This document shows, in pieces, positions 1,900-58,526 of a stretch of 64,000 bases of DNA (positions are counted from its first letter, which is position 1; every line of letters starts with the position of its first letter). A program made the position numbers and the translations under genes. The notes under the pieces were generated by a model, which was given only the letters and a program-made list of their open reading frames with translations, was not told the origin of the DNA and ran no database searches. This stretch comes from Dehalococcoidia bacterium (GTDB taxonomy: Bacteria; Chloroflexota; Dehalococcoidia; Lucifugimonadales; JAGWBF01): the NCBI GenBank assembly GCA_965261965.1, contig OZ253489.1, positions 130,969 to 194,968 on the forward strand, in the 5' to 3' direction.

Positions 1900-3330
1900 A
1901 TTTCGGGTCCTGGCAAGATCATCGGCCATCCGACGCCCCTGCCGTCATTGCCATGAAAATAGGCAGTGCCGGTGGGGGTCGCGCTCCCCAGAATGACAGG
2001 AGGCGCGCGCTCCTCAGAACGACACCAATAAAGTGTCATTCCGAACGTCCCCTTGTCATTCCGAGCGCCCCCTGTCATTCCGAACGGAGTGAGGAATCTA
2101 AGATCTGGCTCTGACGCCATGTCCATTACTACGACGAGGCTTCGTGTGAGCAGGCATCTTAGATTCTTCGGCGTGCGCGCCTCAGAATGACAGGAAGGGC
2201 ACTCTCCTCATAATGACAGGAGGGAGGCACTCCGAACGCCACGAACCAAGTGTCGTTCCGAACGCCCCCCCGTCATTCCGAATGCCCCCCTGTCATTCCG
2301 AACGGAGTGAGGAATCTAAGATCTGGCTCTGACGCCATGTCCATTACTACGACGAGGCTTCGTGTGAATAGGCATCTTAGATTCTTCGTCGTGCGCGCCT
2401 CAGAATGACAGGAGGGGTGCGCTCCTCAGAACGACAACGATGGGGTGTGTCTCAGAACGACATTATCATAGAGGCATTCCGAACGCGCCCCCTTGTCATT
2501 CCGAACGGAGTGAGGAATCTAAGATCTGGCTCTGACGCCATGTCCATTACTGCGACGAGGCTTCGTGTGAGCGGGCACCTTAGATTCTTCGTCGTGCGCT
2601 CCTCAGAATGACAGGAGGGGGAGGCACTCCGAACGCCACGAACAAAGTGTCATTCCGAACGCCCCCCTGTCATTCCGAACGGAGTGAGGAACCTGAGATC
2701 TGGCTCTGACGCCATGTCCATTACTACGACGAGGCTTCGTGTGAGCGGGCACCTTAGATTCTTCGTCGTGCGCTCCTCAGAATGACAGGAGGGGGAGGCA
2801 CTCCGAACGCCACGAACAAAGTGTCATTCCGAACGCCCCCCTGTCATTCCGAACGGAGTGAGGAATCTGAGATCTGGCTCTGACGCCATGTCCATTACTA
2901 CGACGAGGCTTCGTGTGAGCGGGCACCTTAGATTCTTCGGCGTGCGCGCCTCAGAATGACAGGGGGGGTGCGCTCCTCAGAATGACAATGGATGGCGCGC
3001 TCCTCAGAACGACAACGATGGGGTGTGTGCCTCAGAACTACAAATGGGGGGTGTCTCAGAACGACATTATCATAGAGGCATTCCGAACGTGCCCCCTTGT
3101 CATTCCGAACGGAGTGAGGAATCTAAGATCTGGCTTTGACGCCATGTCCATTACTACGACGAGGCTTCGTGTGAGCGGGCATCTTAGATTCTTCGTCGTG
3201 CGCTCCTCAGAATGACATAAAGAAACTGCCCCTCAGAACGACAGGGAGGGTGGTGTGCCTCAGAATGACAAAGGGGGGCGGGGCGTTCAGAATGACGACT
3301 GTGGGGTGTGCACGTCTTTGCGGGCCGATG
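1900..3330 (+). repeat. Array 1 of the 118-bp GTCATTC...GAATGAC element (family A), six copies plus sub-repeats
   Basis: Six copies of exactly 118 bp: 2074-2191, 2292-2409, 2495-2612, 2669-2786, 2843-2960, 3099-3216. Structure: GTCATTCCGAACGGAGTGAGGAATCTAAGAT-[~50-bp core with TTACTACGACG]-ATCTTAGATTCTTCGTCGTGCGCTCCTCAGAATGAC. Spacers are built from GTCATTCCGAAC.. and ..CTCAGAATGACAG sub-repeats. ORFs called here (2405-2611, 2982-3215) are repeat artefacts. Confidence 0.85.
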
Positions 3331-7109: not shown

Positions 7110-7596
7110 ACACACCGTACCGGATCGCAGGCATCAACATCATCAGGGCACCCGGAAGTCCTTCGCCACCGGGGCCGCTGGAAGTCCTTCGACGGTCCGA
7201 GGCGTGCTCCTTAGAATGACGGTGGAAAATGGTCATCCCGCCTTCCCCCAACGTCATTCCGCCTTCCCGCAATGTCATCCCGCCTTCCCGCACTGTCATC
7301 CCGAACCGCATCCTCCACTGTCATTCAGGGGAGAGCCTCCCCCCCCTGTCATTCCGAGGAGCGCACGACGAGGAATCTAAGATGCCCCTCTAGAGGAGGG
7401 TCCGTTGCTTCGAAGAGTCCCCCATGTCGCCGGGATTTTAGATTCCTCACTGCGTTCGGAATGACAGGAGGGGGATTGTCATTCCGAATCCCCCCTTTCA
7501 TTCCGAGGAGTGCCTTCCCCCTCTGTCATTCCGGGGAGCGCCCCCCCCCTGTCATTCCGAGGAGCGCACGACGAGGAATCTGAGATGCCCCTTAAG
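7110..7596 (-). repeat. Family A array 2, part left of the IS1380 insertion
   Basis: One complete 118-bp copy in reverse orientation (7348-7465). The first 46 bp of a second copy (7551-7596) are cut by the IS. GTCATYCCGCC/GTCATTCCG sub-repeats lie at 7200-7340 and 7470-7550. Confidence 0.8.
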
Positions 7597-9314
7597 CCCG
7601 AATCCACCGATGGACAGGGATGGACGGCGTGAGGACAGCGGAAGGGGGTGAGGGAGTTACAGGCGCGATGATCCGGGCTCGAATTTGGGTAGACGGGAGG
7701 TTGGCGGGCGGTCTGCAGGCGCTTTTGGGGGCACCGATGGCGGCCTACAGTGGCTGTGGAGAGCGAGATGGCGGGATAGGACACGGCAAGAGGCGCTCGC
7801 GGACTGGGCTGGCGCGAGTTTGCGGGGACGTTGGGTTGGCTGGCGAGTCAGTGGCGGACGGGCGCCGTCAGGCAGGGAGTGGCAGGGCGCGCAATCGGGC
7901 CAGGGCACGATCGAACTGGGCTTCCCAAGGCCAGCGCTGTGGCAGATGCAGTGTGAGGCGGCGTGCCGAGCGGGTGATCCGTCCGGCCAGGGAGAAGAAC
8001 CGTCGTCTGAGGGTCTTGGTGGTCACGATCTGCTCGCCCAGACCGATGCGCGCTGTCCAGCGGGCGAGGTTGTGGGCCATCACCTGTACCGCCAGCCAGG
8101 CGGCGTTGGCGGCGAAGCGGCCCGAGGGGAGATGGTTCAACCCCACACCGTGCTTGAGGTCTCGGATGGCATTCTCGATCTCGGCGTGGCGGCGATGGTC
8201 GGCCTCCAGTTCGAGCATCTCCCCGTCCCGGTCGGTGATGAAGCCGTGATAGCTGTAGGAGGCGAAGAGGGCCAGCTGGGAACCGGGCGTGGGCTTCACA
8301 CGCCGGACGATGAGCCGCACCGGTGCGGCGTCAGGTTCACTCTGGAACGGAGTGCAGGTGGTCTCGGCCACATCGGCGGCGCCGTCCATCCAGTAGGGAA
8401 TGGGAGTCCAGGCATCCTCTGGTATCGCCTCGATGAGATTGCGCAGGCTCTTGTGCTGGCGGATGGTGATGGAGAAGCGGACATCCATCTTGCGGCAGAC
8501 GGATACCACGCCATGAGTGTAGAACCCGCTGTCGGCCCGTAGCGTGAGTCGTCCGTTGGCCCCGGCGTAGCGCACCCGTCCCACCGTCTCCCGCAGGAAG
8601 TGGGCGGCGCCGCGGGCGGTGTTGGCCCGGCCCTCGCGCAGCCGGGACATCAGCACGTCTCCGGTGCCGGCGGCGATGGCCAGCAGCGGGTGGTAGCCCC
8701 GCTTGCCGGTATAGCCGTGGTGGCGGGCGCCCTCCTTGGCCAGTCCGTAGGTCTCGCAGATGGTGGAATCGAGGTCGATGGTGAACGGCGCGTCGCCGGG
8801 TCCGGCACCGGCCTTCCAGACCCGGGCCAGCAACTCGCGGCTCACCCGGTCCAGTTGGCGGACATGGCCCCACCTGAAGCTGCGCAGGAAGGTCCCCAGG
8901 GTGGAGGGCGCCTTAGCCGTGAAACCGAGCACGCGGGCGGTCCCGCCGGCGCGCAGCACATCGGCGTCGTCGATGCAATCTCCGCCGGCTAGGGCGGAGG
9001 CCACCAGGGTCATCATCTTGTCGCCGGTGTTCGCCCGGCCCGGTGCGCCGCCGAGGTCGAGGTCCTTCCGGAGGAGTTGGGGCAGGCCAAGGCGCAGGGC
9101 GAGGGTGGCGGGAAGGATCAGCCCGGCATTGGCCACCAGGCGGTGATCGTCGAAGGCGATTTGGATGCGGTCGGGGTGGTTACGTGGTAGCATCTATCGG
9201 GTGCTCCTTTTCTGGGACCGGTTTTCTGTTACAAAACCATTATCCCAGATTCAGAGGCGCACCCTTTTGTTTCTTCAGCAGGCCTCCTACACGCCGTCCT
9301 TCGGTGGATTAGGG
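7597..9314 (-). mobile_element. IS1380-family insertion sequence, intact copy
   Basis: Terminal inverted repeats: CCCGAATCCACCGATGG at 7597 and the reverse complement of CCTTCGGTGGATTAGGG ending at 9314. TTAAG is present on both flanks (7592-7596, 9315-9319). A single transposase ORF lies inside. Confidence 0.85.
7868..9193 (-). CDS. IS1380-family DDE transposase
   Basis: 441 aa. The N-terminus MLPRNHPDRIQIAFDDHRLVANAGLILPATLALRLGL is typical of IS1380 transposases (recognised from memory). The region looks visibly GC-richer than its surroundings. Confidence 0.9.
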   Translation of the reverse strand: MLPRNHPDRIQIAFDDHRLVANAGLILPATLALRLGLPQLLRKDLDLGGAPGRANTGDKMMTLVASALAGGDCIDDADVLRAGGTARVLGFTAKAPSTLGTFLRSFRWGHVRQLDRVSRELLARVWKAGAGPGDAPFTIDLDSTICETYGLAKEGARHHGYTGKRGYHPLLAIAAGTGDVLMSRLREGRANTARGAAHFLRETVGRVRYAGANGRLTLRADSGFYTHGVVSVCRKMDVRFSITIRQHKSLRNLIEAIPEDAWTPIPYWMDGAADVAETTCTPFQSEPDAAPVRLIVRRVKPTPGSQLALFASYSYHGFITDRDGEMLELEADHRRHAEIENAIRDLKHGVGLNHLPSGRFAANAAWLAVQVMAHNLARWTARIGLGEQIVTTKTLRRRFFSLAGRITRSARRLTLHLPQRWPWEAQFDRALARLRALPLPA

Positions 9315-10470
9315 TTAAGAGGAGAGTCCGTTGCTTCGAAGAGTCCCCCATGTCGCCGGGATTTTAGATTCCTCACTGCGTTCGGAATGACATAAAGGGG
9401 GCTGATCCTCAGAATGACGGTGGAGAATGGTCATCCCGCCTTCCCCCATTGCCATTCCCCATTCCCCCCTGTCATTCCCGGGAGCGCCTCCCCCCCTGTC
9501 ATTCCGAGGAGCGCCTTCCCCCCCTGTCATTCCGAGGAGCGCACGACGAGGAATCTGAGATGCCTCCTTAAGAGGAGAGTCCGTTGCTTCGAAGAGTCCC
9601 CCATGTCGCCGGGATTTTAGATTCCTCACTACGTTCGGAATGACAGGGGGGGAAGGCAGAATGACAGGGGGGAATTGTCATTCCGAGGCCCCACTGTCAT
9701 TCCGAGGGGCGCCCTCCCCCTCTGTCATTCCGAGGAGCGCACGACGAGGAATCTAAGATGCCTCCTTAAGAGGAGAGTCTGTGGCTTCGAAGAGTCCCCT
9801 ATGTCGCCGGGATTTTAGATTCCTCACTGCGTTCGGAATGACAGGGGGGCACTCGGAATGACAATTCCCCCCTGTCATTCTGCCTTCCCCCCCTGTCATT
9901 CCCAGGAGCCCTTCCCCCCCTGTCATTCCGAGGAGCGCCTCCCCCCTGTCATTCCGAGGAGCGCACGACGAGGAATCTGAGATGCCTCCTAAGAGGAGAG
10001 TCCGTTGCTTCGAAGAGTCCCCCATGTCGCCGGGATTTTAGATTCCTCACTGCGTTCGGAATGACAGGGGGGCACTCGGAATGACAATCCCCCCCTGTCA
10101 TTCTGCCTTCCCCCCCTGTCATTCCCAGGAGCCCTTCCCCCCTGTCATTCCGAGGAGCGCACGACGAGGAATCTAAGATGCCCCTTAAGAGGAGAGTCCG
10201 TTGCTTCGAAGAGTCCCCCATGTCGCCGGGATTTTAGATTCCTCACTGCGTTCGGAATGACAGTGGAGGGGTTCGGAATGACATAAAGGGGGGTGCTTCT
10301 TAGAATGACATAAAGGGGGGGGCTTCTTAGAATGACACAAAGGGAGGGGCTTCTTAGAATGACACAAAGGGAGGGGCTTCTTAGAATGACAATAGTTGGA
10401 GGGGTTCGGAATGACGGTGGGAGAGGGCCCGCGGCGTGACGGTAAGGAAGAGAGGGGGGCCGCAGCATGA
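9315..10470 (-). repeat. Family A array 2, part right of the IS1380 insertion
   Basis: Remainder of the interrupted copy (9320-9391), then copies at 9526-9644, 9724-9842, 9948-10065 and 10144-10261, all in reverse orientation. About five 30-bp CTTCTTAGAATGACA-type sub-repeats follow at 10262-10420. Confidence 0.85.
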
Positions 10471-18370: not shown

Positions 18371-19324
18371 ATGTCTGAACGCAGGATCAACTTCGGAGTT
18401 TCGGCTCCTGACAATTACGGCGCCATCGCTGCTTATGCTGAAGAAGCTGAGTCCCTCGGGTTTGACCGTCTGAGCTTGGGAGAGCACATCATGGATGAGA
18501 ACCCTCCACGCCCCACCGTGATGAGCATACCAGCCTTGGCTGCTGCCGGAGGAGCCACCCGGTCCCTGCGTCTTCTTACGGGCATAGTCCTGATCCCCCT
18601 CTACCACCCGGTCATGTTGGCCAAGCTTGCCACGACGTTGGATGTGGTGAGCGGTGGACGGTTGGACTTCGGCATCGGCGTGGGAGGCCAACGCGATACC
18701 CGGGGCGAGTTCGAAGCTATGGGAGTGCCCGTCGAAGAGCGGGGCCGCAGGGCCAACGAAGCAATCCGCTTGATAAAACACCTCTGGACCGGAGAATCGG
18801 TTACGTTCGAAGGCCGCTTCTACAGTTGCCGGGATGTAACACTGCTGCCCACTCCTATCCAAACGCCCCATCCGCCAATATGGGTTGCGGGTCGGGAAGA
18901 TGCAGCGATGCGCAGGGCTGCAAGGTATGGGGATGGATGGTACCCATACCTGTTCACCAAGCGAAGGCTCGAAGCCAGCATACAAAAAGTGCGGACCGAA
19001 GCTTCAGCAGCAGGAAGGGATTTGGAGGGGTTTCGGTGGGGTTTGCTTCAACCCACCTGCATAGCCGACACCCGAGATGAAGCGCTCAAGATAGCTGCGG
19101 CCAACGTTGGGCAAAGGTATGTTACAGCCGAACGAAGCGCCGAAGATATAGCTCAGGCGCTGTGCATTGCAGGCACAGCCGCGGATTGTATCCGGAAGAT
19201 CGAAGAACGAGTGGAGATGGGAATAACCGATATTACATTACAATGGATTGCGCCGGACCTAGGATCTGTGCGGGACCAGATGCGTGCGGCGGCAGCAAGC
19301 ATCTTACCATACTTCAACACATGA
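18371..19324 (+). CDS. Luciferase-like monooxygenase (LLM) class, F420/flavin-dependent oxidoreductase
   Basis: 317 aa. LLM hallmarks: LGFDRLSLGEH, GGRLDFGIGVG, PPIWVAG. Confidence 0.85.
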   Translation: MSERRINFGVSAPDNYGAIAAYAEEAESLGFDRLSLGEHIMDENPPRPTVMSIPALAAAGGATRSLRLLTGIVLIPLYHPVMLAKLATTLDVVSGGRLDFGIGVGGQRDTRGEFEAMGVPVEERGRRANEAIRLIKHLWTGESVTFEGRFYSCRDVTLLPTPIQTPHPPIWVAGREDAAMRRAARYGDGWYPYLFTKRRLEASIQKVRTEASAAGRDLEGFRWGLLQPTCIADTRDEALKIAAANVGQRYVTAERSAEDIAQALCIAGTAADCIRKIEERVEMGITDITLQWIAPDLGSVRDQMRAAAASILPYFNT

Positions 19325-20090
19325 CCTGGGAAGCTCAATCTGCCGATAATATAGAGCCACTAGCGGCCTTTGCGGGAAAGAAAGTCCTTGAATGCCTGCT
19401 CCACACCGAACTCTTTGACCGTGGTAGAAAGAAGCTCCCGTTCATTCCGCCACAACGGATTGCGCCGGACCTAGGGTCTGTGCGGGACCAGATGCGGAAG
19501 GCGGCAGCCAGCATCTTACCATACTTCAACACATGACCTGAGAAGCTCAATCCGCCGATAATATAGAGCCACTAGCGGCCTTTGCGGGAAAGAAAGTCCT
19601 TGAATGCCTGCTCCACACCGAACTCTTTGACCGTGGTGGAAAGAAGCTCCCGTTCATTCCGCCACAAAGGATTGCGCCGGACCTAGGATCCGTGCGGGAC
19701 CAGATGCGTACGGCGGCAGCCAGCATCTTACCATACTTCAAAGCATGATTTAGGAATCTCAATCCGCCGGTAATATAGAGCCACTAGCGGCCTTTGCGGG
19801 AAAGAAAGTCCTTGAATGCCTGCTCCACACCGAACTCTTTGACCTTGGTGGAAAGAAGCTCCCGTTCATTCCGCCACAACGGATTGCGCCGGACCTAGGA
19901 TCTGTGCGGGACCAGATGCGTACGGCGGCAGCTAGCATCTTACCCTACTTCAAAGCATGATTTAGGAATCTCAATCTGCCGATAATATAGAGCCACTAGC
20001 GGCCTTTGCGGGAAAGAAAGTCCTTGAATGCCTGCTCCACACCGAACTCTTTGACCTTGGTGGAAAGAAGCTCCCGTTCATTCCGCCACA
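19245..20090. repeat. 212-bp tandem repeat x4 containing the 3' ends of two convergent genes
   Basis: Units start at 19245, 19457, 19669 and 19881, an exact 212-bp period. Each unit contains the last ~26 codons and stop of the LLM gene, the spacer, and the last ~31 codons and stop of the crotonase gene. Copies carry SNPs. Confidence 0.9.
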
Positions 20091-20849: not shown

Positions 20850-20896
20850 GATTATTATTTACAAATCCATTCTAATTGCCGAACAGTATTAGGTCA

Positions 20897-21090
20897 ACGA
20901 AGCTACCGGGGCCACTGCGTAAACGAAGCTACCGGGGCCACTGCGTAAACGAAGCTACCGGGGCCACTATGTAAATGAAGCTTAGCGGGGTCGCTGCGTA
21001 AATGAAGCTTAGTGGGGTCACTGTGTAAACGAAGCTTAGCGGGGTCACTGCGTAAATGAAGCTTAGTGGGGTCACTGTGTAAATGTTCAG
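20897..21090. repeat. 26-bp tandem repeat, about 7 copies
   Basis: AGCTACCGGGGCCACTGCGTAAACGA-type units start at 20901, 20927 and 20953. Three units of one variant are followed by four of a second variant (AGCTTAGYGGGGTCRCTGYGTAAAYGA). There are no unique spacers. Confidence 0.85.
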
Positions 21091-21129: not shown

Positions 21130-21945
21130 ATCCCGAACGCCGGCTTATCACGCCGAGCCGCCCACTGTAATTCCGAACCCCCTACTGTCATTCCGAACCG
21201 CAGTGAGGAATCTAAAATGCCCCGACCAAAGCCTCGTCCAATACTACGATAAGCCATAGGGTGAGCAGGCATCTTAGATTCTTCGTCGTGCGCTCCTCAG
21301 AATGACAGTGAAGGGGCGCACTCCTCAGAACGACAGTGAAGGGGCGCACTCCTCAGAATGACAGTGAGGAGGGTGCTCCTCAGAATGACAGTGGGGGGCG
21401 CGCTCCTCAGAATGACAGTGAGGAGGGTGCTCCTCAGAATGACAGTGGGGGGCGCACTCCTCAGAATGACAGTGAAGGGGCGCGCTCCTCAGAATGACAG
21501 TGAGGAGGGTGCTCCTCAGAATGACAGTGAAGGAGGGTGCTCCTCAGAATGACGATAAGGGGGCGCTACTCAGAATGAGAATAAGGGGAGGCGCCAGCTG
21601 TAATTCCGAACCCTCCCCCTGTCATTCCGAACCGCAGTGAGGAATCTAAGATGCCCCGACCGAAGCCTAGTCCATTTCTACGACGAACCATAGGGTGAGC
21701 CAGCATCTTAGATTCTTCGTCGTGCGCTCCTCAGAATGACAGTGAGGGGGGCGCGCTCCTCAGAATGACAATAAGGGGAGGCGCCAGCTGTGATTCCGAA
21801 CCCTCTCCCTGTCATTCCGAACCGCAGTGAGGAATCTAATATGCCCCGACCAAAGCCTCGTCCAATACTACGATGAGCCGTCGGGTGAGCAGGCATCTTA
21901 GATTCTTCGTCGTGCGCTCCTCAGAATGACATGGAGGGGAGGGCG
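21130..21945 (+). repeat. Family A array 3
   Basis: Three 120-bp copies (21187-21306, 21621-21740, 21811-21930) and about ten ~31-bp CTCCTCAGAATGACAGTGARGRGGGYGC sub-repeats (21296-21600). Confidence 0.85.
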
Positions 21946-22101
21946 CTCCTCAGAAGGTGGGGTGCGGGGAAACGCGGCGGCCTCAGCTGGTAGCGCCCGG
22001 CCTTGGCTGGGTGGCGCTGCGGGCGCAGATGGGTGGCGGTCGGGCGCAGCGGGGAGGCGCTGCGGGCGCGAGTGGGTGGCGGTGGGGAGGCTGGCTTACC
22101 T

Positions 22102-29390: not shown

Positions 29391-30986
29391 GAGTTTGTCT
29401 CATAGACCGGTGGGCGGGTTGAGTAACACAGGTGTGGGAGCGATGCGCCTCAACAGAGGTTGGCCCGTCCAGTTGCACCGGCCACTTGTCGGCCCCCAGA
29501 AAGGTCGTCTACTCTCTTAGTTCCATGGCGCCTTGACCCAGTCCCAAGGCGCTTGGCCGCTGCGCCATAGCTTGAGCAAGTTATGGGTCGTCCCTGCCAG
29601 CGACCACTCACTCTGTGCAGCGCCCAACCCCCGTCTCATAAACCGTCGGAACCCCTGGCCTTCCTTGACCTGTCCGAACACCGGCTCCACCAGTACACCC
29701 CGCTTCTTGTACAGAGCTCGGCCTCGCTTTGTCAGCAGCTTGCGCTCCATCCTGTCCCTCGGGCTCAGTCCTTTTGGTATACGCCCTCGGGGACACCCCT
29801 TCTCCCATAGCAGCTTCCGCTGTTTCCAATCCTTGGTGGTGGCAATAAGAAGCTCAGGCATCTCTGGCCAGGGGCAAGCCCTGATGTTGGCCTCACTCCA
29901 GTACCCGGCATCGGCCAAGCCCGCTTTGGGCCGGTCCTCTATGCCGGCTGCTTCCAGAGTATGCGCCATGGTTTGGAGCATCGGCTCCAGTTGCTGCACA
30001 TCGTTGGCCTCTTGGGTCACTCCAACGGCTACTATGATCTGCTCCTCGCTCACCACCGCCTGGGCATTGTAGCCCTGCACGTACCCTTGCCTGGTCTTCA
30101 TGATACGACTGTCCGGGTCGGTGGTATTAGCCTTCGCCCCTTCGGTAGGAAGTGGCTCTACCACCTTGGGCTTTCGCCCTCGCTTCTTTTTGCCTGTGAC
30201 ATCTTCTTCTGCCCGCCGTCGCTCCACGTGCTCTTGGACAGCCTTGGCTCCTGCTTCAGCCTCCCGCTGCAGACGTTCCTTGGCTTCCTTCAGGCGCTTG
30301 AGCCGCTCCGTCCGTCCCCCTAGCCCTTCCGGTAGCTCATCCCCTCGCCGGTCGGGACCATAATGGGCATCCTCTTCAGCATCCGTTGCCTTGGCCTCTG
30401 CCAACATGCGCCGCACTTCTTCTTCAATGGCCTGGTGGCTCCGGTTGGTGGCCAGGGCCGCGTTGGCTGCCACCTTCGTCCCATCAAGAGCCACTACCCC
30501 CAACTTCACCAGACCCGCTTCATGGCATAACCTCAGTACCTCTACAAAGAGCTCCTCGAACGCCTCCTCGCGCTCCGCCCTAAAGCGACAGATGGTACGG
30601 AAGTCTGGCTGCCGGTTGGCCGCCACCACCCGGAATCCTACATCTTCCTCCAGAGCACGGGCTATGCGCCTGGAACTGCGTACACCCAGGCAGTAGCCGT
30701 ACAACAGGATGGCCACCATCATCCCCGGATCGTAGGCCGCTGCACCCCATCCATCACTTCGATAGACTGCATAGAACTCCCTCAGATCCATCTGGCCTAC
30801 TGCATCTACAATGAACCAAGCCAAGTGACCCTCACTCAGCCAATCCCTCATGGACGGCGGCATCAAGTAGCTCTGGTCTCGCTCGCAACTCAGAAGGTTA
30901 TAAGCCATAGTGTCCTACCTGCCTGATGTTTCTATGAGCTTACTGCTTCGCCAACCCCGCAGGAAGGGGGTTTATGGGACACGCTC
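29391..30986 (-). mobile_element. IS1182/IS5-like insertion sequence, copy 1 (1596 bp)
   Basis: Imperfect terminal inverted repeats GAGTTTGTCTCATAGACC (left end) and GAGCGTGTCCCATAAACC (reverse complement of the right end). A 4-bp direct repeat CCAT lies on both flanks (29387-29390, 30987-30990). Confidence 0.85.
29517..30908 (-). CDS. IS1182/IS5-family DDE transposase
   Basis: 463 aa. N-terminal DUF772-like region (YDPGMMVAILLYGYCLGVRSSRRI), a central charged coiled segment and a C-terminal DDE region. The family name is from memory. Confidence 0.88.
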   Translation of the reverse strand: MAYNLLSCERDQSYLMPPSMRDWLSEGHLAWFIVDAVGQMDLREFYAVYRSDGWGAAAYDPGMMVAILLYGYCLGVRSSRRIARALEEDVGFRVVAANRQPDFRTICRFRAEREEAFEELFVEVLRLCHEAGLVKLGVVALDGTKVAANAALATNRSHQAIEEEVRRMLAEAKATDAEEDAHYGPDRRGDELPEGLGGRTERLKRLKEAKERLQREAEAGAKAVQEHVERRRAEEDVTGKKKRGRKPKVVEPLPTEGAKANTTDPDSRIMKTRQGYVQGYNAQAVVSEEQIIVAVGVTQEANDVQQLEPMLQTMAHTLEAAGIEDRPKAGLADAGYWSEANIRACPWPEMPELLIATTKDWKQRKLLWEKGCPRGRIPKGLSPRDRMERKLLTKRGRALYKKRGVLVEPVFGQVKEGQGFRRFMRRGLGAAQSEWSLAGTTHNLLKLWRSGQAPWDWVKAPWN

Positions 30987-32439: not shown

Positions 32440-33860
32440 CAGTCATCCTCCATAAACTAAATCTCGAGCGCCTCCCCCCTCCGTCATCCCGCCCTCCCTC
32501 CCCCCCGTCATCCCGCCCGCCCTCCCCCCCGTCATCCCGCCCGCCCTCCTCACTGTCATTCCGAACGCCCTCCTCACTGTCATTCCGAACCTCCCCCGCT
32601 GTCATTCCGAACCGCAGCGAGGAATCTAAAATCCCGGCGACCCACAATGGCCCGTCATAGTAACCAACCAGACATCAGAGCGGCATCTTAGATTCCTCGT
32701 CGTGCGCTCCTCGGAATGACATAAAGAAACTGCTCCTCAGAATGACAATAAAGGAAGGCGCCCCTCAGGACGACAACAAAAGAAGGGCGCTCTTCGGAAT
32801 GACAGTGAGGGATCTCGCCCTCCTTATCGTCATCCCCATTCCGAGGAGTGCCTCCCCCGCTGTCATTCCGAACCGCGGTGAGGAATCTAAAATCCCGGCG
32901 ACCCACAATGGCCCGTCGTAGTAACCAACCAGACATCAGAGCGGCATCTTAGATTCCTCGTCGTGCGCTCCTCGGAATGACAGTAAGGGAGGCGCCCCTC
33001 AGAATGACAGGGCGGAGGCACTCCTCGGAATGACAGTGCAGGAAGGGCGCTCCTCGGAATGACAGTGCAGGAAGGGCGCTCCTCGGAATGACAGTGAGGG
33101 AGGCGCTCCTCGGAATGACAGTGCGGGGAGCTCGCCCTCCTTATCGTCATCCCCATTCCGAGGAGTGCCTCCGCCCTGTCATTCCGAACCTCCCCCGCCG
33201 TCATTCCGAACGGACTCTCTGTCCGTCCGACCCTCCCCTCGCTGTCATTCCGAACCGCGGTGAGGAATCTAAAATCCCGGCGACCCACAATGGCCCGTCG
33301 TAGTAACCAACCAGACATCAAAGCGGCATCTTAGATTCCTCGTCGTGCGCTCCTCGGAATGACATAAAGAAGGTGCTCCGCGGAATGACAGTGAGGGAGG
33401 CGCTCCTCGGAATGACAGTGCAGGGAGGCGCTCGTCGGAATGACAGTGAGGGGAGGCGCTCCTCGGAATGACAGCGAGGGGAGGTGCTCCTCGGAATGAC
33501 AGTGAGGGGAGGCGCTCCTCGGAATGACAGTGCAGGAACGGCACTCCTCGGAATGACAGCGAGGGAGCTCGCCCTCCTTATCGTCATCCCCATTCCGAGG
33601 AGCGCCTCTCCCAATGTCATTCCGAACCTCCCCCCTGTCATTCCGAACGGGCCCCCGTCATTCCGAACCTTCCCCGCTGTCATTCCGAACCGCAGTGAGG
33701 AATCTAAAATCTCCCTCCGATGGCCTGCCCGTTACTACGACGGTCCTTCAGGTGAGCCAGCAGCTTAGATTCCTTGTCGTGCGCGCCTCAGAATGACAGT
33801 AAAGGGAAGGCGGTCCGCAGAATGACGGTGATGGGAGGCACCCCGGAGGATAAAGATAAG
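32440..33860 (+). repeat. Family A array 4
   Basis: Copies at 32601-32720, 32862-32981 and 33244-33363 (core inverted relative to array 1) and at 33679-33797 (core as in array 1). About eight ~31-bp CTCCTCGGAATGACAG sub-repeats lie at 33340-33570. Confidence 0.85.
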
Positions 33861-35124: not shown

Positions 35125-35545
35125 GAAAAGCTGGGGCGCTACTCCGGCTGATGCACGGCGACGGGCATGGTGGGTCTGTCAGCAAACCAGATGGCAACTC
35201 CTCCCAGGGCGGTCAGTCCGGCAAACACCGAAAAGCTGGGGGCGCTACTCCGGCTGATGCACGGCGACAGGCATGGTGGATCTATCAGCAAACCAGATGG
35301 CAACCCCTCCTAGGGCGGTCAGTCCGGCAAACACCGAAAAGCTGGGGAGCTACTCTGGCTGATGCACGGCGACGGGCATGGTGGGTCTGTCAGCAAACCA
35401 GATGGCAACTCCTCCTAGGGCGGTCAGTCCGGCAAACACCAAAAAGCTGGGGCGCTACTCCGGCTGATGCACGGCGACGGGCATGGTGGGTCTGTCAGCA
35501 AACCAGATGGCAACTCCTCCCAGGGCGGTCAGTCCGGCAAACACC
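35125..35545. repeat. ~105-bp tandem repeat x4 made of the MFS gene 3' end
   Basis: Units start at 35125, 35230, 35336 and 35441. Each holds 14 nt of downstream sequence, the stop codon and the last ~29 codons (..[23 protein letters not shown]). Only the fourth unit is joined to the gene. Confidence 0.9.
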
Positions 35546-36777
35546 AAAAAGGGAATAAGATAGGACCCTCGGGTGTCGAACATGTAGCCGGCGAATAGGG
35601 GAGCCACCATCATGCCGATGTTGTTGGGCAGCTGAGACAGCCCCATGATGGTGGCAAAGGACTTCCGCCCGAAGTAATCTCCCCGGATTGCGGTCAGCAG
35701 AGGCACCCGTCCACCGAACCCTATGCCATAAAACACCGCGAACACGTAGACCATCGCCACATTATCCGCGAATGCTATCACCGTTATGCCCACCGTCTGG
35801 AACGCTATGAACACAAAAATCGCCGCCGGCTTGGATGTCCGGTCAGCCAGGTATCCGGCCATGGTCTGGGTTGGCAGCGCCACGGCGGTATAGGTCAACA
35901 CCACTATCCCGGCAGAGCTCAATGACATCCCCATATCCGTCAGCTTCGGCACCAAATGAAGAGCCAAGCTCACTATGGCTACGCTGGAAGATAGATGAAC
36001 AAAGGAGATGATCCAAAAAGCCCGGGTGCGCAGGGCTTGCCTGGCGGTGAACTCCGGTTCTTCGAACCCGGCGGATTCAGTCCTTGATCCCGTACTAGCC
36101 GGCCGTGGAGGATCGCCGTCAGGGAGGAGTCCGTGGTCTTCGGGACGGTTGCGAATGAACTTGGTTGCAGGCAAGCAGAACAGCAGGACGAAGACCCCGA
36201 TGCCAAGGGTAGCTTTATGAAAGCCCACCGTATCGATCACCACAGCCAGGACTGAAACCAGCAGCCCGGCAATATGAATGCCGGACATGGCGGACGACAT
36301 AGCAATGGACCGCTTTCTGATGAACCAGTTGTTGACGATGGTGATGGAAGCGAGCCAACCCCCCAGGCCGGAGCCCACGGTGAGAATGATGAACGCCAGG
36401 TAGAATTGCCAGATCTGTTCGACCGTGGAAAGATAGATGAAGCCGCACCCCATGATCGAGAAGCCGATGAAAATCATCCGGCGGCTGCCGAAGTGGTCGA
36501 TCAGAAATCCTTCTATGGGACCGATAGCTGCACCCTGCACCCGGGAAAAGGCGAAAGCTCCCGATAAGGCAGTCCGGCTCCAGCCGAACTGACGTTCCAG
36601 AGCTACCATGTATGTGCCCACACCTTGGAAAACCCCCAACGACATGACCGATATCAAGAAAGAGACCACAGCAACCATCTTCCAGCCATAGAAGATGCTG
36701 CCTTTCCCACCTGAACGGCCCAAGAACCGGTCATCCATCTCCTGGGAAGAGCGGCGGCTATCCTTGTCAGCGGACAT
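35455..36777 (-). CDS. MFS transporter
   Basis: 440 aa with about 12 hydrophobic segments in a 6+6 arrangement and a central hydrophilic loop. Confidence 0.85.
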
Positions 36778-39218: not shown

Positions 39219-41087
39219 ATGCTTGAAAGTCCGACACGGAAATCCTCCTCGTTCCCCCACCGACTTCCCCTCCGAATCTTAGCACTTGCTCTGATTCTGC
39301 TGGTTACGCTCGCGGCCTGCGGACAGGAGGGCCAACCGGACGGTAGCGCAGCGACAGGCGGCACGGAAACGGCCGTCTCCACGGTTCCTCCCACGGCCAC
39401 AACCGCAGCCGCGCCCACCCTCGTGCCAGCGGCCACGCCTTACCCAACTCCAACGCCCGCGCCACAACCGACCTACACGCCCGTGCCCACGCCGACTTCC
39501 CTTCCGACGGCCACGCCGGTACCACCCGCACCTACACCTCAGCCCACGCCAACACCAACGCCTGCCCAGGCCGCCCGCCTCACCGACAACGACGCTGTTG
39601 ATGCGGGCCCAGACTGGTCGCCCGACGGCCGGCGCATCGCGTTCCATTCCGACCGCGACGGGAACCGGGAGATCTACGTGATGAACGCCGACGGCTCCGG
39701 CCTCGCCCGCCTCACCGACAACGACGCCTATGATTATGACCCCGACTGGTCGCCCGACGGCCAGCGCATCGCGTTCACTTCCGACCGCGACGGGAACTGG
39801 AAGATCTACGTGATGAACGCCGACGGCTCCGGCCTCGCCCGCCTCACCGACAACGACGCTGGTGATTGGGCCCCCGCCTGGTCGCCCGACGGCCGGCGCA
39901 TCGCGTTCCATTCCGGACGCGACCGGAGCCGGGAGATCTACGTGATGAACGCCGACGGCTCCGGCCTCGCCCGCCTCACCGACAACTACGCTGGTGATTA
40001 TGACCCCGCCTGGTCGCCCGACGGCCAGCGCATCGCGTTCCGTTCCAACCGCGACGGGTCCGATCACGATGGGAACTACGAGATCTACGTGATGAACGCC
40101 GACGGCTCCGGCCTCGCCCGCCTCACCGACAACTACGCTGGTGATTATGACCCCGCCTGGTCGCCCGACGGCCAGCGCATCGCGTTCCATTCCGACCGCG
40201 ACGGAAACTGGGAGATCTACGTGATGAACGCCGACGGCTCCGGCCTTGCCCGCCTCACCGACAACGACGCTGGTGATTGGGGGTCCGCCTGGTCGCCCGA
40301 CGGCCAGCGCATCGCGTTCCATTCCAACCGCGATGGGAACTGGGAAATCTATGTGATGAACGCCGACGGCTCCGGCCTCGCCCGCCTCACCGACAACGAC
40401 GCCGGTGATTATAGACCCGCCTGGTCGCCCGACGGCCAGCGCATCGCCTTCTATTCCGACCGCGACGGGAACTGGGGGGAGATCTACGTGATGAACGCCG
40501 ACGGCTCCGGCCTCGCCCGCCTCACCGACAACGACGCTGGTGATGGGGACCCCGACTGGTCGCCCGACGGCCGGCGCATCGTCTTCCATTCCAACCGCGA
40601 CGGGAACTGGGAGATCTACGTGATGAACGCCGACGGCTCCGGCCTCGCCCGCCTCACCGACAACAACGCTGATGATTTTCGACCCGACTGGTCGCCCGAC
40701 GGCCAGCGCATCGCGTTCACTTCCGACCGCGATGGGAACTACGAGACCTACGTGATGAACGCCGACGGCTCCGGCCTTGCCCGCCTCACCGACAACAACG
40801 CTGATGATTATAGACCCGACTGGTCGCCCGACGGCCAGCGCATCGCGTTCACTTCCGACCGCGATGGGGACTGGGAGATCTACGTGATGAACGCCGACGG
40901 CTCCGGCCTCGCCCGCCTCACCGACAACAACGCTGATGATTTTCGACCCGACTGGTCGCCCGACGGCCAGCGCATCGCGTTCACTTCTGACCGCGACGGG
41001 AACTACGAGACCTACGTGATGAACGCCGACGGCTCCGGCCTCGCCCGCCTCACCGACAACAACGCTGATGATTTTCGACCCGCCTAG
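39219..41087 (+). CDS. TolB-like PD40 beta-propeller repeat lipoprotein (12 blades; the last is interrupted by TAG)
   Basis: Start taken at MLESPTRK (GAGGAG upstream). Lipobox LTLAAC and a Pro/Thr-rich linker. Twelve ~44-aa units follow: RLTDNDAxDxxPxWSPDGxRIAFxSDRDGNxEIYVMNADGSGLA. The frame stays open for 27 codons past the TAG, to a TGA at 41169-41171. Confidence 0.8.
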   Translation: MLESPTRKSSSFPHRLPLRILALALILLVTLAACGQEGQPDGSAATGGTETAVSTVPPTATTAAAPTLVPAATPYPTPTPAPQPTYTPVPTPTSLPTATPVPPAPTPQPTPTPTPAQAARLTDNDAVDAGPDWSPDGRRIAFHSDRDGNREIYVMNADGSGLARLTDNDAYDYDPDWSPDGQRIAFTSDRDGNWKIYVMNADGSGLARLTDNDAGDWAPAWSPDGRRIAFHSGRDRSREIYVMNADGSGLARLTDNYAGDYDPAWSPDGQRIAFRSNRDGSDHDGNYEIYVMNADGSGLARLTDNYAGDYDPAWSPDGQRIAFHSDRDGNWEIYVMNADGSGLARLTDNDAGDWGSAWSPDGQRIAFHSNRDGNWEIYVMNADGSGLARLTDNDAGDYRPAWSPDGQRIAFYSDRDGNWGEIYVMNADGSGLARLTDNDAGDGDPDWSPDGRRIVFHSNRDGNWEIYVMNADGSGLARLTDNNADDFRPDWSPDGQRIAFTSDRDGNYETYVMNADGSGLARLTDNNADDYRPDWSPDGQRIAFTSDRDGDWEIYVMNADGSGLARLTDNNADDFRPDWSPDGQRIAFTSDRDGNYETYVMNADGSGLARLTDNNADDFRPA

Positions 41088-41404
41088 TCGCCCGACGGCC
41101 AGCGCATCGCGTTCACTTCCGACCGCGATGGGGACTGGGAGATCTACGTGATGAACGCACCCGAAGAGTGATGCCGCGTTGGCCTGGAATTGATTCCCGG
41201 AGACGGGTGTTCCGGTTCGGGTTTCTATATCAGAATCAACGAAAGCGGAGCGGCGGTTATTGACGGCAACTTCGGGGGCATCACTATGGGCAACACCACA
41301 ATGTCCGCGGGGAGCATAAACCTGAACCGGTTCAGTGCCAGCTCAATTGGTTCACTTCAGGGTGCGTGGACGATTCAGAGCCTCCCCTAGCCGGGTGTTC
41401 TGCC

Positions 41405-41837: not shown

Positions 41838-42009
41838 TAGGGATAGTCTGAATAAGTCCCCGCGGATGCGGAGGATGGACGTGAAACCCGTCCCTACAGA
41901 GGGGCGAGGTTCCCGACTTCGCGGGAATGACGGGCTTCATGGGGCGGGAATGACGGTCTTCAGGGGGCGGGAATGACGGTCTTCAGGCGAGTTGTTCAGA
42001 GGTTCCCTA
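41838..42009 (+). mobile_element. Family B MITE, copy X1 (TA-flanked, GGGAnnnTCTGAA inverted ends)
   Basis: TA-GGGATAGTCTGAATAAG...GTTGTTCAGAGGTTCCC-TA. Internal hairpins GGACG-N7-CGTCC and TTCCCG-N-CGGGAA. Three internal GCGGGAATGACGGnCTTCA sub-repeats. The right end overlaps the carB stop codon. Confidence 0.7.
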
Positions 42010-47316: not shown

Positions 47317-48699
47317 CTATGCTTCTTGGACTATCCTTTTGGGACTGCGAAATCCCTTTGCCCGCGCGCCGGGCGCATCCCGGTAAAATCCGAACTTGGC
47401 AGGATCGACCGGGTGTTGGGGGAATTCTCCCACCGGATGATAGACCTCCCCGTAGGGGTAAGAAAAGTATGCTAGGATGGTCTCCCGTTCACAGTAGCTG
47501 CAAACCAAACGCAGGCTGGGTTGCAGGTAGAAAGAGTACCTGGGTGTCACACTCTGGGGTTCTTTTATAGCAACGCAGTCGGTGTTGGCGCACGTGATAT
47601 CCAGAGGTCCCTCCAGCGGAACACCGCGCAGAGGGACATCATTAGATTTTTCGGCGGCTTGGCTCCACGGCTTCAAGCCCAGCATCAGTGCAATCAGCGA
47701 CATGCGCACCGGCACACCGTTGCGGGCTTGTTGAAAATATATGCTTCGCGGGTCGGCATCAATGCTTGGTGAGACCTCATCGACCCTGGGGAGGGGGTGC
47801 ATCACAAAGGCTTTGGAAAATTCAGATCTGTGCAGGATGGACATATCTATCCGAGGGTAGGCTGTGGAGCTGCCTGTGGTTTCTGGAGTCTCCCTTTCTT
47901 TTTGTCTGCGGGTGGCATACAGGGCAATAGATTCGTCTACGTCCAACCGCAGATGCGTCGAATCGAACAAGGTGAGAGAGTAAGGCTTGCTGGGGGTCAT
48001 ATAGATAGCATCCACCACACTTTCAGAGCCGCCTTCGCTTTGAGAATACAAAGCTTCCAGCCCTGCCTGTTGTATCTTTTGGATGGGGGTCTCGTAATCT
48101 GCCTCCAGCTTGTGAAGGACATGGTCGGGCAGCCCCAAACCTTCCCCCGGAACGAAGATGATCATAGCGCCGAACCTGAGCAGCGCATACAGGAGAGAAT
48201 GAACGGTTCGACCATTCTTCAGGTCGCCGCAGAGGACGATCTTCTTACCCCGCAGATTTCCGAACTCTTTCCTGAGTGTGTACAGGTCCACCAAGGTCTG
48301 GGTTGGGTGCTCATGCGCGCCGTCGCCGGCGTTGATTATGGGAACATCGCTGTACTCGGCAGCCAGCTTGGCCGATCCTTCCCAAGGATGCCGGATGATC
48401 GCCAGGTCGGCATAGCTGCTCCAAATGCGAATCGTATCTGCCAAAGATTCACCCTTGGCCATGGAAGAAAGGCTGATATCTCCCGTGCTCACCACATCGC
48501 CGCCCAAGCGCTTCATGGCAGATTCGAAAGAACCCCGGGTCCGTGTGCTGGGCTCCAAGAACAAGCTGGCCATCAGCAGACGAGATGCCAACCCATAAAA
48601 AGCATCCCGGTCCTGTTCCATTTCCTGAGCCAGGTCCAGGACATCTTCGATCTGGCTGATGGACAGGTCTTCGATGGTAACCAAGCTGCCTTTAAACAT
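47317..48699 (-). CDS. pyrB: Aspartate carbamoyltransferase catalytic chain fused to a PyrI-like zinc domain
   Basis: 460 aa. STRTR and HPLPR motifs lie in the first ~310 aa. The C-terminal ~110 aa carry CxxxC...CxxC (CANTDC ... CSYC), like the PyrI regulatory-chain zinc domain. Confidence 0.88.
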   Translation of the reverse strand: MFKGSLVTIEDLSISQIEDVLDLAQEMEQDRDAFYGLASRLLMASLFLEPSTRTRGSFESAMKRLGGDVVSTGDISLSSMAKGESLADTIRIWSSYADLAIIRHPWEGSAKLAAEYSDVPIINAGDGAHEHPTQTLVDLYTLRKEFGNLRGKKIVLCGDLKNGRTVHSLLYALLRFGAMIIFVPGEGLGLPDHVLHKLEADYETPIQKIQQAGLEALYSQSEGGSESVVDAIYMTPSKPYSLTLFDSTHLRLDVDESIALYATRRQKERETPETTGSSTAYPRIDMSILHRSEFSKAFVMHPLPRVDEVSPSIDADPRSIYFQQARNGVPVRMSLIALMLGLKPWSQAAEKSNDVPLRGVPLEGPLDITCANTDCVAIKEPQSVTPRYSFYLQPSLRLVCSYCERETILAYFSYPYGEVYHPVGEFPQHPVDPAKFGFYRDAPGARAKGFRSPKRIVQEA

Positions 48700-48810: not shown

Positions 48811-49023
48811 GCGCTTGGGCCCCTTCGCTGGGAGCAGTGGCTTCGACCTTGATTCTGATAGTGCAGGGTACGCACTTGGCCCCTTCGCCGGGAGGAGTGA
48901 CTTCGACCTTGATTCTGATAGTACAGGGTACGCACTTGGCCCCCTTCGCAGGGAGGAGTGGCTTCGACCTTGATTCTGATAGTGCAGGGTGCGCACTTGG
49001 CCCACTTCGCCGGAAGCAGTGGG
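48811..49023. repeat. 60-61-bp tandem repeat, about 3.5 copies, in the pyrB 5' leader region
   Basis: CTTCGACCTTGATTCTGATAGT recurs at 48841, 48901 and 48962. The units carry SNPs and 1-nt length differences. Confidence 0.8.
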
Positions 49024-49289: not shown

Positions 49290-49483
49290 CCAGCATTGTC
49301 ATACTGAGGAGCGCCTTCCTCCCTCCCCCCCGTCATTCTGAGGCTCCTCCTCCTCCCCTGTCATGCTGAGGCGCGCACGCCTCCCCCCTGTCATTCTGAG
49401 GAGCGCACGCCGAAGAATCTAATATGCCGGCTAACATCATGGCTCGTCGTAGTAATGGGCAGGCCATTGGAGGAGGACCTAAG
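49290..49483 (-). repeat. Family A sub-repeats plus one truncated copy abutting IS1380 copy 2
   Basis: GTCATWCTGAGG sub-repeats at 49296-49390. A copy starts at 49390 (GTCATTCTGAGGAGCGCACGCCGAAGAATCTAATATGCC, core with CGTCGTAGTAA) and ends at the IS boundary. Confidence 0.7.
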
Positions 49484-53695: not shown

Positions 53696-53844
53696 TAGGG
53701 AACCTCTGAACAACTCGGCTGAAGCCCGTCATTCCCGCCCCCTGAAGCCCGTCATTCCCGCGAAGGCGGGAACCTCGCCCCTCTGTAGGGACGGGTTTCA
53801 CGTCCATCCTCTGCATCCAAGGGGACTTATTCAGACTATCCTTA
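53696..53844 (-). mobile_element. Family B MITE, copy X2 (reverse orientation)
   Basis: TA-GGGAACCTCTGAACAAC...CTTATTCAGACTATCCT-TA. Two internal GAATGACGGG sub-repeats. Confidence 0.7.
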
Positions 53845-53881
53845 GAGTTGGTCTAACCTGGTTATCCTGTGTCGGGGGAGA

Positions 53882-54661
53882 ATGATGCCCTACGAGGGCT
53901 TGAATCTGGAAGGTAAAAATGCTCTGGTGACCGGATCGGCCCGCGGGATCGGCCGGGCCTTGGCTGTTGGTCTGGCTGAGGCGGGCGCCAATGTGGCTGT
54001 TTCCGATACATCGGAGCGGCTGGAAGAGTCGCGGGAAACCCAAGAGATGATAGAGAAGCTGGGAGCTAAGAGCGGAGCCTATCTCCTTGATGTTCTGGAT
54101 GTTGGTAAGATCCCGTCGACCCTTCAACAGGTGTCAGAGGATTTGGGCGGCTTGGACATTTTGATCAACAACGCAGGGGTTAGAGTGCGAAAGCTCGCCT
54201 TGGAAGTGACCGAAGATGAGTGGGATTATGTGGTCGATACCAACCTGAAGGGTGTCTTCTTCTGTGCCCAAGCAGCAGCGAAGCAGATGATTCCCCGTGG
54301 CAGCGGTCGAATCATAAACATTGCCTCCCAGTTTGCTATCGTTGCGCAGAATGACAGGGCACCTTATTGCGCCAGCAAGGGCGGGGTGGCCAACCTGACC
54401 AAAGCCCTCGCCTTGGAGTGGGCACGATATAAGATCACCGTGAATGCCATAGGCCCCGGACCCACCGATACTCCAGGCATTCAAATTGCCAATCCCCGGT
54501 CCCCTGAAGATATCCAACGCGAGATGGATGCCGATATGCCCTTGGGGCGGCGGATGGAGCCTGAAGAGCTGGTGGGTGGAGCGATTTATCTGGCGAGCCC
54601 ATCGGCGGTAGCTACCACGGGACACCTTCTGATCGTCGACGGTGGCTGGACAGCCCGGTAG
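53882..54661 (+). CDS. Short-chain dehydrogenase/reductase (classical SDR)
   Basis: 259 aa. TGSARGIG Rossmann motif, NNAG, YCASK (YxxxK). Confidence 0.9.
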   Translation: MMPYEGLNLEGKNALVTGSARGIGRALAVGLAEAGANVAVSDTSERLEESRETQEMIEKLGAKSGAYLLDVLDVGKIPSTLQQVSEDLGGLDILINNAGVRVRKLALEVTEDEWDYVVDTNLKGVFFCAQAAAKQMIPRGSGRIINIASQFAIVAQNDRAPYCASKGGVANLTKALALEWARYKITVNAIGPGPTDTPGIQIANPRSPEDIQREMDADMPLGRRMEPEELVGGAIYLASPSAVATTGHLLIVDGGWTAR

Positions 54662-54689
54662 GGTTCGAGTCCAAACCCTCGATGATATT

Positions 54690-54718
54690 TTGGATATTTT
54701 GCGTATTGGGCACATAGT
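54690..54718 (+). promoter_or_regulatory. Candidate promoter of the bPH-SHOCT cassette
   Basis: TTGGAT (54690-54695), 17 nt, CATAGT (54713-54718). AGGAGG lies 8 nt before the ATG at 54771. Confidence 0.3.
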
Positions 54719-58403: not shown

Positions 58404-58526
58404 AGATAGTCTGAATAAGTCCCCTTGGATGCGGAGGATGGACGTGAAACCCGTCCCTACGGAGGGGCGAGGTTCCCGCATTCGCGGGAATGACGGGTTT
58501 CAGGCGAGTTGTTCAGAGGTTCCTTA
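58404..58526 (+). mobile_element. Family B MITE, copy X3 (left end slightly truncated)
   Basis: AGATAGTCTGAATAAG...GTTGTTCAGAGGTTCCT-TA. A single internal GAATGACGGG unit. Confidence 0.7.

Follow-up and report, generated by a model that had tools for sequence, protein, structure and literature searches.

The 64,000-nucleotide stretch considered here (the window; positions 130,969 to 194,968 of contig OZ253489.1, assembly GCA_965261965.1, from a Dehalococcoidia bacterium of the phylum Chloroflexota) carries a family of short repeats that are stacked into arrays between genes. Each repeat, referred to below as a doublet, consists of two inverted arms, one short and one long, around a core of 63-64 nt without conserved sequence. 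A pattern that requires both ends identifies 18 intact units of 118-120 bp; together with one unit split by an insertion sequence (IS) and one truncated unit, they lie where the original prediction, made from the DNA letters alone, had placed them, and its description of asymmetric short and long ends, locus-specific cores and an intergenic location is borne out. The 12-mer GTCATTCCGAAC occurs 43 times in the window with at most one mismatch, compared with 0.25 occurrences expected from shuffles. The arrays and their flanking repeat tracts occupy approx. 5.2 kb (approx. 8% of the window) and are wholly intergenic, and the neighboring genes are ordinary chromosomal genes, encoding FusA, a MoxR-like AAA protein, a VWA protein, an M48 peptidase, an enoyl-CoA hydratase, a DUF3179 protein and luciferase-like monooxygenases.

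Array 1 (1944..3303, plus strand, in the order short arm, core, long arm) lies between fusA and the MoxR-like AAA gene. It contains six 118-bp doublets, located by the pattern search at 2074-2191, 2292-2409, 2495-2612, 2669-2786, 2843-2960, and 3099-3216, and the linkers between them are made up of half-sites, i.e., partial copies of the doublet ends (see below). Array 2 (7213..10415, minus strand, with the short arm on the minus strand) is situated between the VWA gene and the M48 peptidase gene; it comprises five intact doublets of 118-119 bp, two of which are 119 bp long (7348-7465, 9526-9644, 9724-9842, 9948-10065, and 10144-10261, all on the minus strand), and one split doublet, and the gaps are occupied by half-site tracts. 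The split doublet (7551-7596 plus 9320-9391) is interrupted by an IS1380-type element of 1718 bp (7597..9314, minus strand), which encodes a 441-aa DDE transposase (PF13701) and is accompanied by a TTAAG target duplication. When the IS and one TTAAG are removed, the rebuilt doublet is exactly 118 bp long; the IS1380-type element in its core is a passenger that stands outside the repeat system. Array 3 (21167..21955, plus strand) is composed of three 120-bp doublets (21187-21306, 21621-21740, and 21811-21930) and contains approx. ten 27-28-bp long-arm half-sites in one run (21290-21578). Array 4 (32442..33826, plus strand) holds four doublets of 119-120 bp (32601-32720, 32862-32981, 33244-33363, and 33679-33797) and half-site runs at 32476-32612, 32965-33124, 33347-33567, and 33615-33691. 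Finally, the truncated unit (49297..49483, plus strand) retains upstream half-sites, the long arm (49390-49419) and the core but has lost its short arm, and it is ended by a second IS1380-type copy (approx. 49484-51200) that is 80-90% identical to the first. Both IS1380-type copies lie inside doublet cores, at YTAAG sites, and arrays of a sister strain (see below) hold IS3-type elements; insertion within arrays may reflect a safe-haven effect or a target preference. Neighboring 174-bp units are 98% identical and the cores differ from array to array, which agrees with the local amplification proposed in the original prediction.

Each doublet end is a small directional hairpin that reads GTC, ATTCY, a loop region, RGAAT, and C. 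The short arm runs GTC, ATTCC, GA, AC, G-N-A (or CGCA), GT, GA, GGAAT, C, and the long arm, which has an extra stem tier, runs GTC, ATTCY, GA, GGM, GCGCAC, GMC, GA, RGAAT, C; the corresponding spacings are ATTCC-N11-12-GGAAT and ATTCY-N16-RGAAT. The inner tier of the long arm is formed either by three Watson-Crick pairs (GGC/GCC) or by one pair plus tandem G·A (GGA/GAC), and its two variable bases mostly change in concert. A perfect 5-bp stem is present in 37 of the 39 doublet arms of the window. In both arms, the 5' GTC and the final C show no variation, or at least 90% conservation, among 34 aligned copies from the window and the sister strain. The near-invariant arms contrast with the cores, which fall into locus-specific families (at least five in the window and further ones in the sister strain, L201) that are only 50-70% identical to each other, although their length is held at 63-64 nt. 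In the first three units of array 4 and in one sister-strain unit, the core is inverted relative to the arms; in particular, unit 32862 contains the exact reverse complement of GTTACTACGACGG from unit 33679. The arms and the core thus act as distinct modules. The possibility that the core is coding or contains a vestigial gene start was rejected: the ATG found 4 nt past the long arm is part of the stem extension, and the 19-20-aa frames give no indication of purifying selection.

A feature that the original prediction missed is that the doublets are flanked by head-to-tail half-copies of their own ends, invariably oriented towards the core. Read on its own strand, each half-site contains the 5' flank and the first half of an arm. 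On the short-arm side there are 1-3 such units of approx. 20 bp each, containing TGTCATTCCGAAC followed by a C-rich tail, and on the long-arm side there are up to approx. ten units of 27-28 bp each, containing GCGCTCCTCRGAATGACA.

The arm design leads to a system described in Neisseria. The Neisseria transformation sequence (NTS), CGTCATTCCCGCGMAVGCGGGAATCYRG, which includes the old dRS3 repeat, is bound and cut by SsnA, a 94-aa single-domain GIY-YIG protein (cd10448) (Chenal et al. 2025, PMC11893778). SsnA cuts a few nucleotides 5' of GTC and only in single-stranded DNA (ssDNA); it does not act on the reverse strand, double-stranded DNA or RNA. Cutting depends most on the three bases that precede the palindrome, and binding on the C that follows it (PMC11893778). 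The published binding and cleavage data concern Neisseria and Wolbachia sites only. Ssn-related motifs (SRMs) flank 71% of ssn homologues, across phyla (PMC11893778). In N. meningitidis, the Ssn system lowers the integration of site-bearing transforming DNA, and the resemblance of the NTS-ssnA-NTS unit to an insertion sequence was raised by the authors as a hypothesis only, with mobility left untested there (PMC11893778). The arms of the window carry the defining SRM design, namely GTC directly 5' of a palindrome and C directly 3' of it. They also share with SRM/NTS a palindrome that begins with ATTC, strand directionality, intergenic location and many copies, and in other organisms, ssn homologues have arms of this class on their flanks (see below). 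The doublet arms differ from SRM/NTS in their tandem G·A mismatches and GNA-type loop, in failing the published search string, and in occurring only as fixed-length inverted pairs with upstream half-site runs, in a Chloroflexota host. The original prediction did not recognize the repeat as a described family; this no longer holds, as its ends belong to the SRM/NTS class (PMC11893778) and the architecture of its arrays resembles that of the intergenic mosaic elements of Neisseria (NIMEs) (PMC1797815). A literature search with the sequence strings of the repeat returned only primers and bla sequences.

The window holds two SRM classes. The published SRM search string, HGTCWYN(0-2)YYVSBRHN(0-5)WNVSBRGN(0-2)RNCYNB, matches at 53750(+) and 58495(-) only, compared with 0.73 matches expected by chance. 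The first of these matches is a canonical NTS-like SRM (CGTCATTCCCGCGAAGGCGGGAACCTCG, 53750-53777, with an upstream half-site at 53728) within the left arm of a 145-bp inverted repeat (53696..53840, plus strand), and the second is the SRM at 58468-58495 within the right arm (58405..58526, minus strand); the two repeat arms share 96% identity over 100 nt and 93% over 43 nt. They bound approx. 4.6 kb with five ordinary genes, encoding a short-chain dehydrogenase, two bacterial PH-domain proteins, an ornithine cyclodeaminase and a methyltransferase, and this 'SRM-genes-SRM' layout (53696-58526) resembles an arrangement that has been reported to surround Neisseria genes. A near-canonical Neisseria-type SRM (GTCATTCCCGCGAAGTCGGGAA) is located at 41931 (41904..41986, minus strand), with the PD40-repeat gene and carB on either side, after two 23-bp half-sites (41954 and 41977). 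The ATTCCCGCG type is represented solely by these three sites (41931, 53750 and 58495), which the original prediction had also overlooked.

The original prediction held that each unit can fold into a long interrupted hairpin. Such a fold is indeed predicted for the whole unit (-15 to -22 kcal/mol, with z-scores from -1.6 to -3.1); as the conserved structure, however, the long hairpin is not supported. In the 34 aligned units, the lone variable position of the stem shows covariation within the long arm (21 copies have U-A, 12 have C-G and 1 is unpaired), whereas pairing the same base against the other arm leaves a C·A mismatch in 22 of the 34 copies, and no compensatory change above shuffles was found for the hairpin between the arms. 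From this alignment, we conclude that each arm is the functional unit and that the 118-120-bp element is composed of two such arms. The same evidence bears on the notion that the approx. 120-nt unit is transcribed as a regulatory or stabilizing hairpin RNA. The discrete unit size and the predicted whole-unit fold are what such an RNA would have, but the long hairpin lacks compensatory support, both orientations relative to the flanking genes occur, and Rfam yields no match at gathering thresholds across the window (at E values up to 10, only noise-level microRNA and long non-coding RNA hits). Moreover, the arm resembles a known DNA mini-hairpin design (a G-N-A loop closed by C-G, with tandem G·A), and the RNA version of the site is not bound by SsnA (PMC11893778). 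A structured non-coding RNA is thus hardly probable. Two other candidates were rejected. A hammerhead ribozyme is suggested by GUC followed by CUGAnGA, but the CCGA variants lack the invariant U, and integron attC sites can be dismissed, as there are no GTTRRRY core sites and no integrase, and the 'cassettes' would be merely 55-140 bp long.

Comparison with related genomes shows how rapidly the arrays change. The best homologue of the VWA protein (98% identity) is encoded by a sister strain, on a 1.49-Mb ENA contig (ERZ25069125), 22 kb of which contain 17 further units of 117-119 bp (one of 107 bp). In the sister strain, arrays occupy the syntenic spacers that follow fusA and the VWA gene, and they differ in copy number, contain additional core families and have acquired IS3 insertions. 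It had originally been allowed that the arrays might be assembly artefacts; since the independently assembled contig of a 98%-identical strain carries both units and arrays at syntenic spacers, this is not the case. In contrast, a more distant syntenic relative (L206, 65% protein identity) has no arms at all in 22 kb, and its VWA-M48 spacer is 130 bp long and free of repeats versus approx. 3.5 kb in the window. The gene order from fusA to the M48 peptidase gene is conserved between L206 and the window, and the short, repeat-free spacers of L206 can serve as 'empty site' references. The differences from the sister strain, together with the arm-free L206, indicate that the arrays are a recent, lineage-specific and fast-changing expansion. 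Judging by how homologues are named, the host belongs to Chloroflexota/Dehalococcoidia.

In these respects the arrays resemble NIMEs. NIMEs are built from dRS3 hairpins around more than 100 families of 50-150-bp filler, and their arrays vary between strains and gather IS insertions; at that time, NIMEs were believed not to occur beyond Neisseria (Bentley et al. 2007, PMC1797815). The window likewise exhibits short hairpins that flank many unrelated filler families, stacked intergenic arrays, strain-variable copy number and IS insertions. Nevertheless, the doublet arms do not conform to the dRS3 consensus ATTCCCNNNNNNNNGGGAAT: the hairpin is ATTCC-N11-20-GGAAT versus ATTCCC-N8-GGGAAT in Neisseria. 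The filler is almost fixed at 63-64 nt in the window versus 19-214 bp in Neisseria, and the window adds arms of two distinct lengths and half-site stutter tracts.

Relatives of the arm are not confined to this lineage. The pattern GTCATTCYGA-N5-14-GARGAATCT was scanned against one genome per species (596 Gb), which gave at least 120 loci; by our own estimate, chance alone would give approx. 170 matches. The arm matches listed come from Chloroflexota, Acidobacteriota, Nitrospirota, Planctomycetota, Bacteroidota, lineages of the candidate phyla radiation, Pseudomonadota and others. Although Y and R were free to vary, the 176 arms in these loci combine ATTCT with AGAAT in 90 cases and ATTCC with GGAAT in 77, and only 3 are mixed; it is this covariation, 167 to 3, that shows the arms not to be chance matches. 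In the loci listed, the loop region co-varies too (GAGCGnAGCGA versus GAACGnAGTGA, where n is any base). An inverted partner lies 20-60 nt downstream of approx. 50 of the listed arms versus 7 upstream, the latter being the control, and some arms are single, without a partner. In the loci fetched with their surroundings, a generic hairpin definition yields 76 doublets, mostly of 60-90 bp and with unrelated cores. Half-sites accompany these arms as well: among 423 arms in the fetched loci, a same-strand half-site occurs within 80 nt upstream in 25 cases versus 3 downstream, usually with a period of 21-22 nt, with examples in Nitrospirales, Gracilibacteria, Dehalococcoidia and Lachnospiraceae. 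The half-site stutter is therefore a property of the hairpin family.

The same loci bear on the view that the doublets are classical miniature inverted-repeat transposable elements (MITEs), i.e., deletion derivatives of an IS whose terminal inverted repeats are TGTCATTC...GAATGACA and whose DDE transposase would move them in trans by cut-and-paste. Terminal inverted repeats that start with TG and end with CA, a uniform unit size and multiple copies would fit, and the end-like half-sites recall the multiple transposase-binding sites of Tn7 or Mu ends. However, flank repeats at the 76 doublets from many genomes are equal to those of the shuffled-flank control, so that no target-site duplication is detectable; both IS families of the window have other ends; arms are also found singly; and the covariation within the arm indicates a hairpin rather than a duplex binding site. 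A MITE origin consequently appears very unlikely.

What recurs with the arms elsewhere is a nuclease gene. Among the at least 120 loci, clustering of neighboring open reading frames (ORFs) recovers only generic families and GIY-YIG, and no common transposase, including no recurrent Y1 transposase, was found among the loci listed. In three loci (L007, L042 and L046, from Saccharibacteria, Kiritimatiellae and Gracilibacteria), a gene for a GIY-YIG protein (PF01541) of approx. 95 aa lies between inverted arms, and in two of these loci, 1-9 nt separate the end of the upstream arm from the start codon. A further 80 metagenomic loci were then chosen solely by their similarity to these arm-flanked GIY-YIG proteins. 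Under a strict arm definition (GTCA, a perfect 5-bp stem and a trailing C), an arm is present no more than 200 nt upstream of ssn in 42 of the 80 loci and no more than 250 nt downstream in 40. The nearest arm points with GTC outward in 26 versus 16 cases upstream and in 34 versus 6 downstream, and the base that follows the palindrome, when not required to be C, is C in 80 of 88 arms. In L184 and L187, a long arm upstream and a short arm downstream of ssn repeat the asymmetry of the window's unit. SRM-class arms thus flank single-domain cd10448-type GIY-YIG nuclease genes in related loci. Matched stem variants are also encountered in the fetched loci (e.g., L069 7267-7345, L007 7385-7480 and L186), namely ATTGC/GCAAT, ATCCT/AGGAT, ATCCC/GGGAT, ATGTC/GACAT and ACCCT/AGGGT, and the two sides of one ssn gene often carry different variants; this variety hints at many different specificities of sites and enzymes. 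With only 4 ssn relatives found among 2.9 million viral contigs, phages do not stand out as a vector.

The association with a nuclease also bears on the comparison with repetitive extragenic palindromic (REP) sequences. It had been suggested that a transposase or a relative of the REP-associated tyrosine transposase (RAYT) bounded by GTCATTC termini might be the partner of the repeat; the doublets show no target-site duplications, and the gene that recurs between arms elsewhere encodes a GIY-YIG nuclease instead. According to this proposal, the arms would be REPs and the doublets REPINs (inverted REP pairs), moved by a RAYT, an IS200/IS605-type Y1 transposase, encoded elsewhere in the genome. 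The two systems have much in common: a REPIN is designed as two inverted small palindromes that make a hairpin of approx. 100 bp, arrays of alternating hairpins are similar to bacterial interspersed mosaic elements (BIMEs), target-site duplications are missing in both REPINs and doublets, an ssDNA hairpin is the substrate recognized in both REP and Ssn systems, and in both a single-copy enzyme gene is flanked by its own sites. Nonetheless, the conserved 5' motif is GTCA rather than the GTAG/GTGG of REPs, the arm is near-identical over more than 10 phyla, unlike the species-specific REPs, and no Y1 transposase recurs near the arms in the at least 120 loci listed or is present among the window ORFs that were scanned, which did not include every small ORF. 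The enzymes differ as well: Ssn is a GIY-YIG nuclease that forms no covalent intermediate, whereas a RAYT is a HUH Y1 transposase. A REP/REPIN system is therefore very unlikely.

Taken together, these observations make it probable that the doublets are paired, gene-less SRMs in NIME-like arrays, with nicking by a cognate Ssn as their putative biochemical role. Several observations weigh against this explanation. The published string matches none of the 39 doublet arms, as the G·A mismatches break it. About half of the 80 ssn loci have no arm under the strict definition, and that sample was seeded by Ssn proteins next to this arm class, so that the subfamily is over-represented in it. No ssn gene was found in the 64-kb window (E up to 10) or in 22 kb of the sister strain (E up to 1), which is a further difference from the SRM/NTS systems; the original prediction had noted that no gene of the window has matching termini, and indeed none does, nor is there an ssn ORF. 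Lastly, under a standard DNA nearest-neighbor model, isolated arms fold at only -0.5 to -2.7 kcal/mol, no better than shuffles. Regarding the first of these points, the string matches only 5 of the 80 sampled ssn loci, and its failure is thus a limit of the string rather than a sign of non-membership. As to the last, the nearest-neighbor model does not account for C-G-closed G-N-A loops or tandem sheared G·A pairs. In DNA, both have unusually high stability and belong to a known mini-hairpin design. The case for the local hairpin accordingly relies on the covariation and on these known stabilities, which lie outside the folding model.

The missing gene is also the starting point for regarding the arrays as inert, SRM-like remnants, in which Ssn has been lost from the lineage and the arrays change only via slippage and unequal recombination. 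In addition to the absence of ssn from the 86 kb examined, 19% of genomes with more than 200 SRMs had no ssn homologue in the published survey (PMC11893778), and much of the array structure is explicable by local tandem duplication. On the other hand, near-invariant arms stand against cores that have diverged to 50-70% identity, and the critical GTC and trailing C are kept in essentially all copies; this contrast between arms and cores speaks in favor of ongoing constraint on the arms, or of their conversion. Inert remnants are thus improbable.

If the doublets are paired, gene-less SRMs, the following picture may be drawn. The arm would be an SRM, i.e., a directional hairpin that forms in single-stranded DNA. 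The doublet has the layout of an SRM-ssn-SRM unit minus the gene; presumably, doublets are gene-less derivatives of such units. The arrays grow and shrink through local duplication, as NIME arrays do. By homology of the site, the genome would encode a cognate Ssn, which would nick the arms when the region becomes single-stranded, as during replication, repair or DNA uptake. This nicking may modulate recombination at array loci or drive the spread of the repeats themselves. The half-site stutter is found on the same side of the arm as the reported Ssn cut, and the upstream half-site runs may be by-products of nicking or of polymerase stalling at the hairpin.

A more far-reaching version holds that the doublets are non-autonomous mobile elements, copied or moved via single-stranded intermediates by Ssn acting in trans, with SRM-ssn-SRM as the autonomous form and the half-site runs as footprints of nick-primed or stalled copying. 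Mobility of this kind would predict gene-less doublets with conserved arms and unrelated cores in many phyla, as in the 76 doublets found. Autonomous and non-autonomous forms would then constitute a class of bacterial transposable element that is driven by a nuclease family not known to mobilize DNA in prokaryotes. We regard this version as possible but rather unlikely.

Several other repeats are present in the window. Two copies of an IS5/IS1182-type element (29391-30908 and 61380-62897), encode a 463-aa transposase (DUF772 and DDE_Tnp_1_6); their 100% identity across the 300 nt compared points to recent transposition. Before array 1, a 50-bp unit is repeated 2.9 times (1734-1879) and takes in the last codons and the stop of fusA, so that the 3' end of the gene is reiterated. 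Directly upstream of array 3, a 27-bp unit (AACGAAGCTTAGCGGGGTCACTGCGTA) is present in seven copies (20896-21083), with a sequence unrelated to the SRM half-sites. Four copies of a 212-bp unit (19240-20090), which are 95% identical and contain no SRM motif, are located between the enoyl-CoA hydratase gene and an unannotated ORF. A 105-bp repeat (4.1 copies, 35125-35551) overlaps the start of an MFS ORF (35455-36777, minus strand) and the spacer beyond it, and a 61-bp repeat (3.4 copies, 48814-49022) lies in the spacer beyond a pyrB-like gene (47317-48699, minus strand); both are unrelated to the SRM repeats, and the genome is generally repeat-rich. Within coding DNA, the PD40 (TolB-like beta-propeller) gene (39572-41158) is composed of approx. 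twelve 132-bp repeats with 89% DNA identity, an unusually homogeneous coding repeat.

With respect to the literature, several features appear to be new: arms of the G·A type, which the published string does not match, doublets of fixed length, half-site stutters upstream of arms, inverted cores, and a Chloroflexota host. What seemed an orphan repeat can now be assigned to a system whose enzyme is known and whose mechanism can be tested, and NIME-like arrays, once held to be specific to Neisseria, are found in a Chloroflexota lineage. The G·A-mismatch arm is the commonest design in the metagenomic sample and is not picked up by the published string, so that SRM numbers in the literature may be too low. 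The short and long arms could be used as substrates to test new Ssn specificities, for which a use in cutting ssDNA has been proposed. Moreover, the widespread gene-less doublets and the upstream stutters provide the first sequence-level hints of site multiplication, and if Ssn-driven mobility were true, the doublets would represent a new kind of bacterial mobile element.

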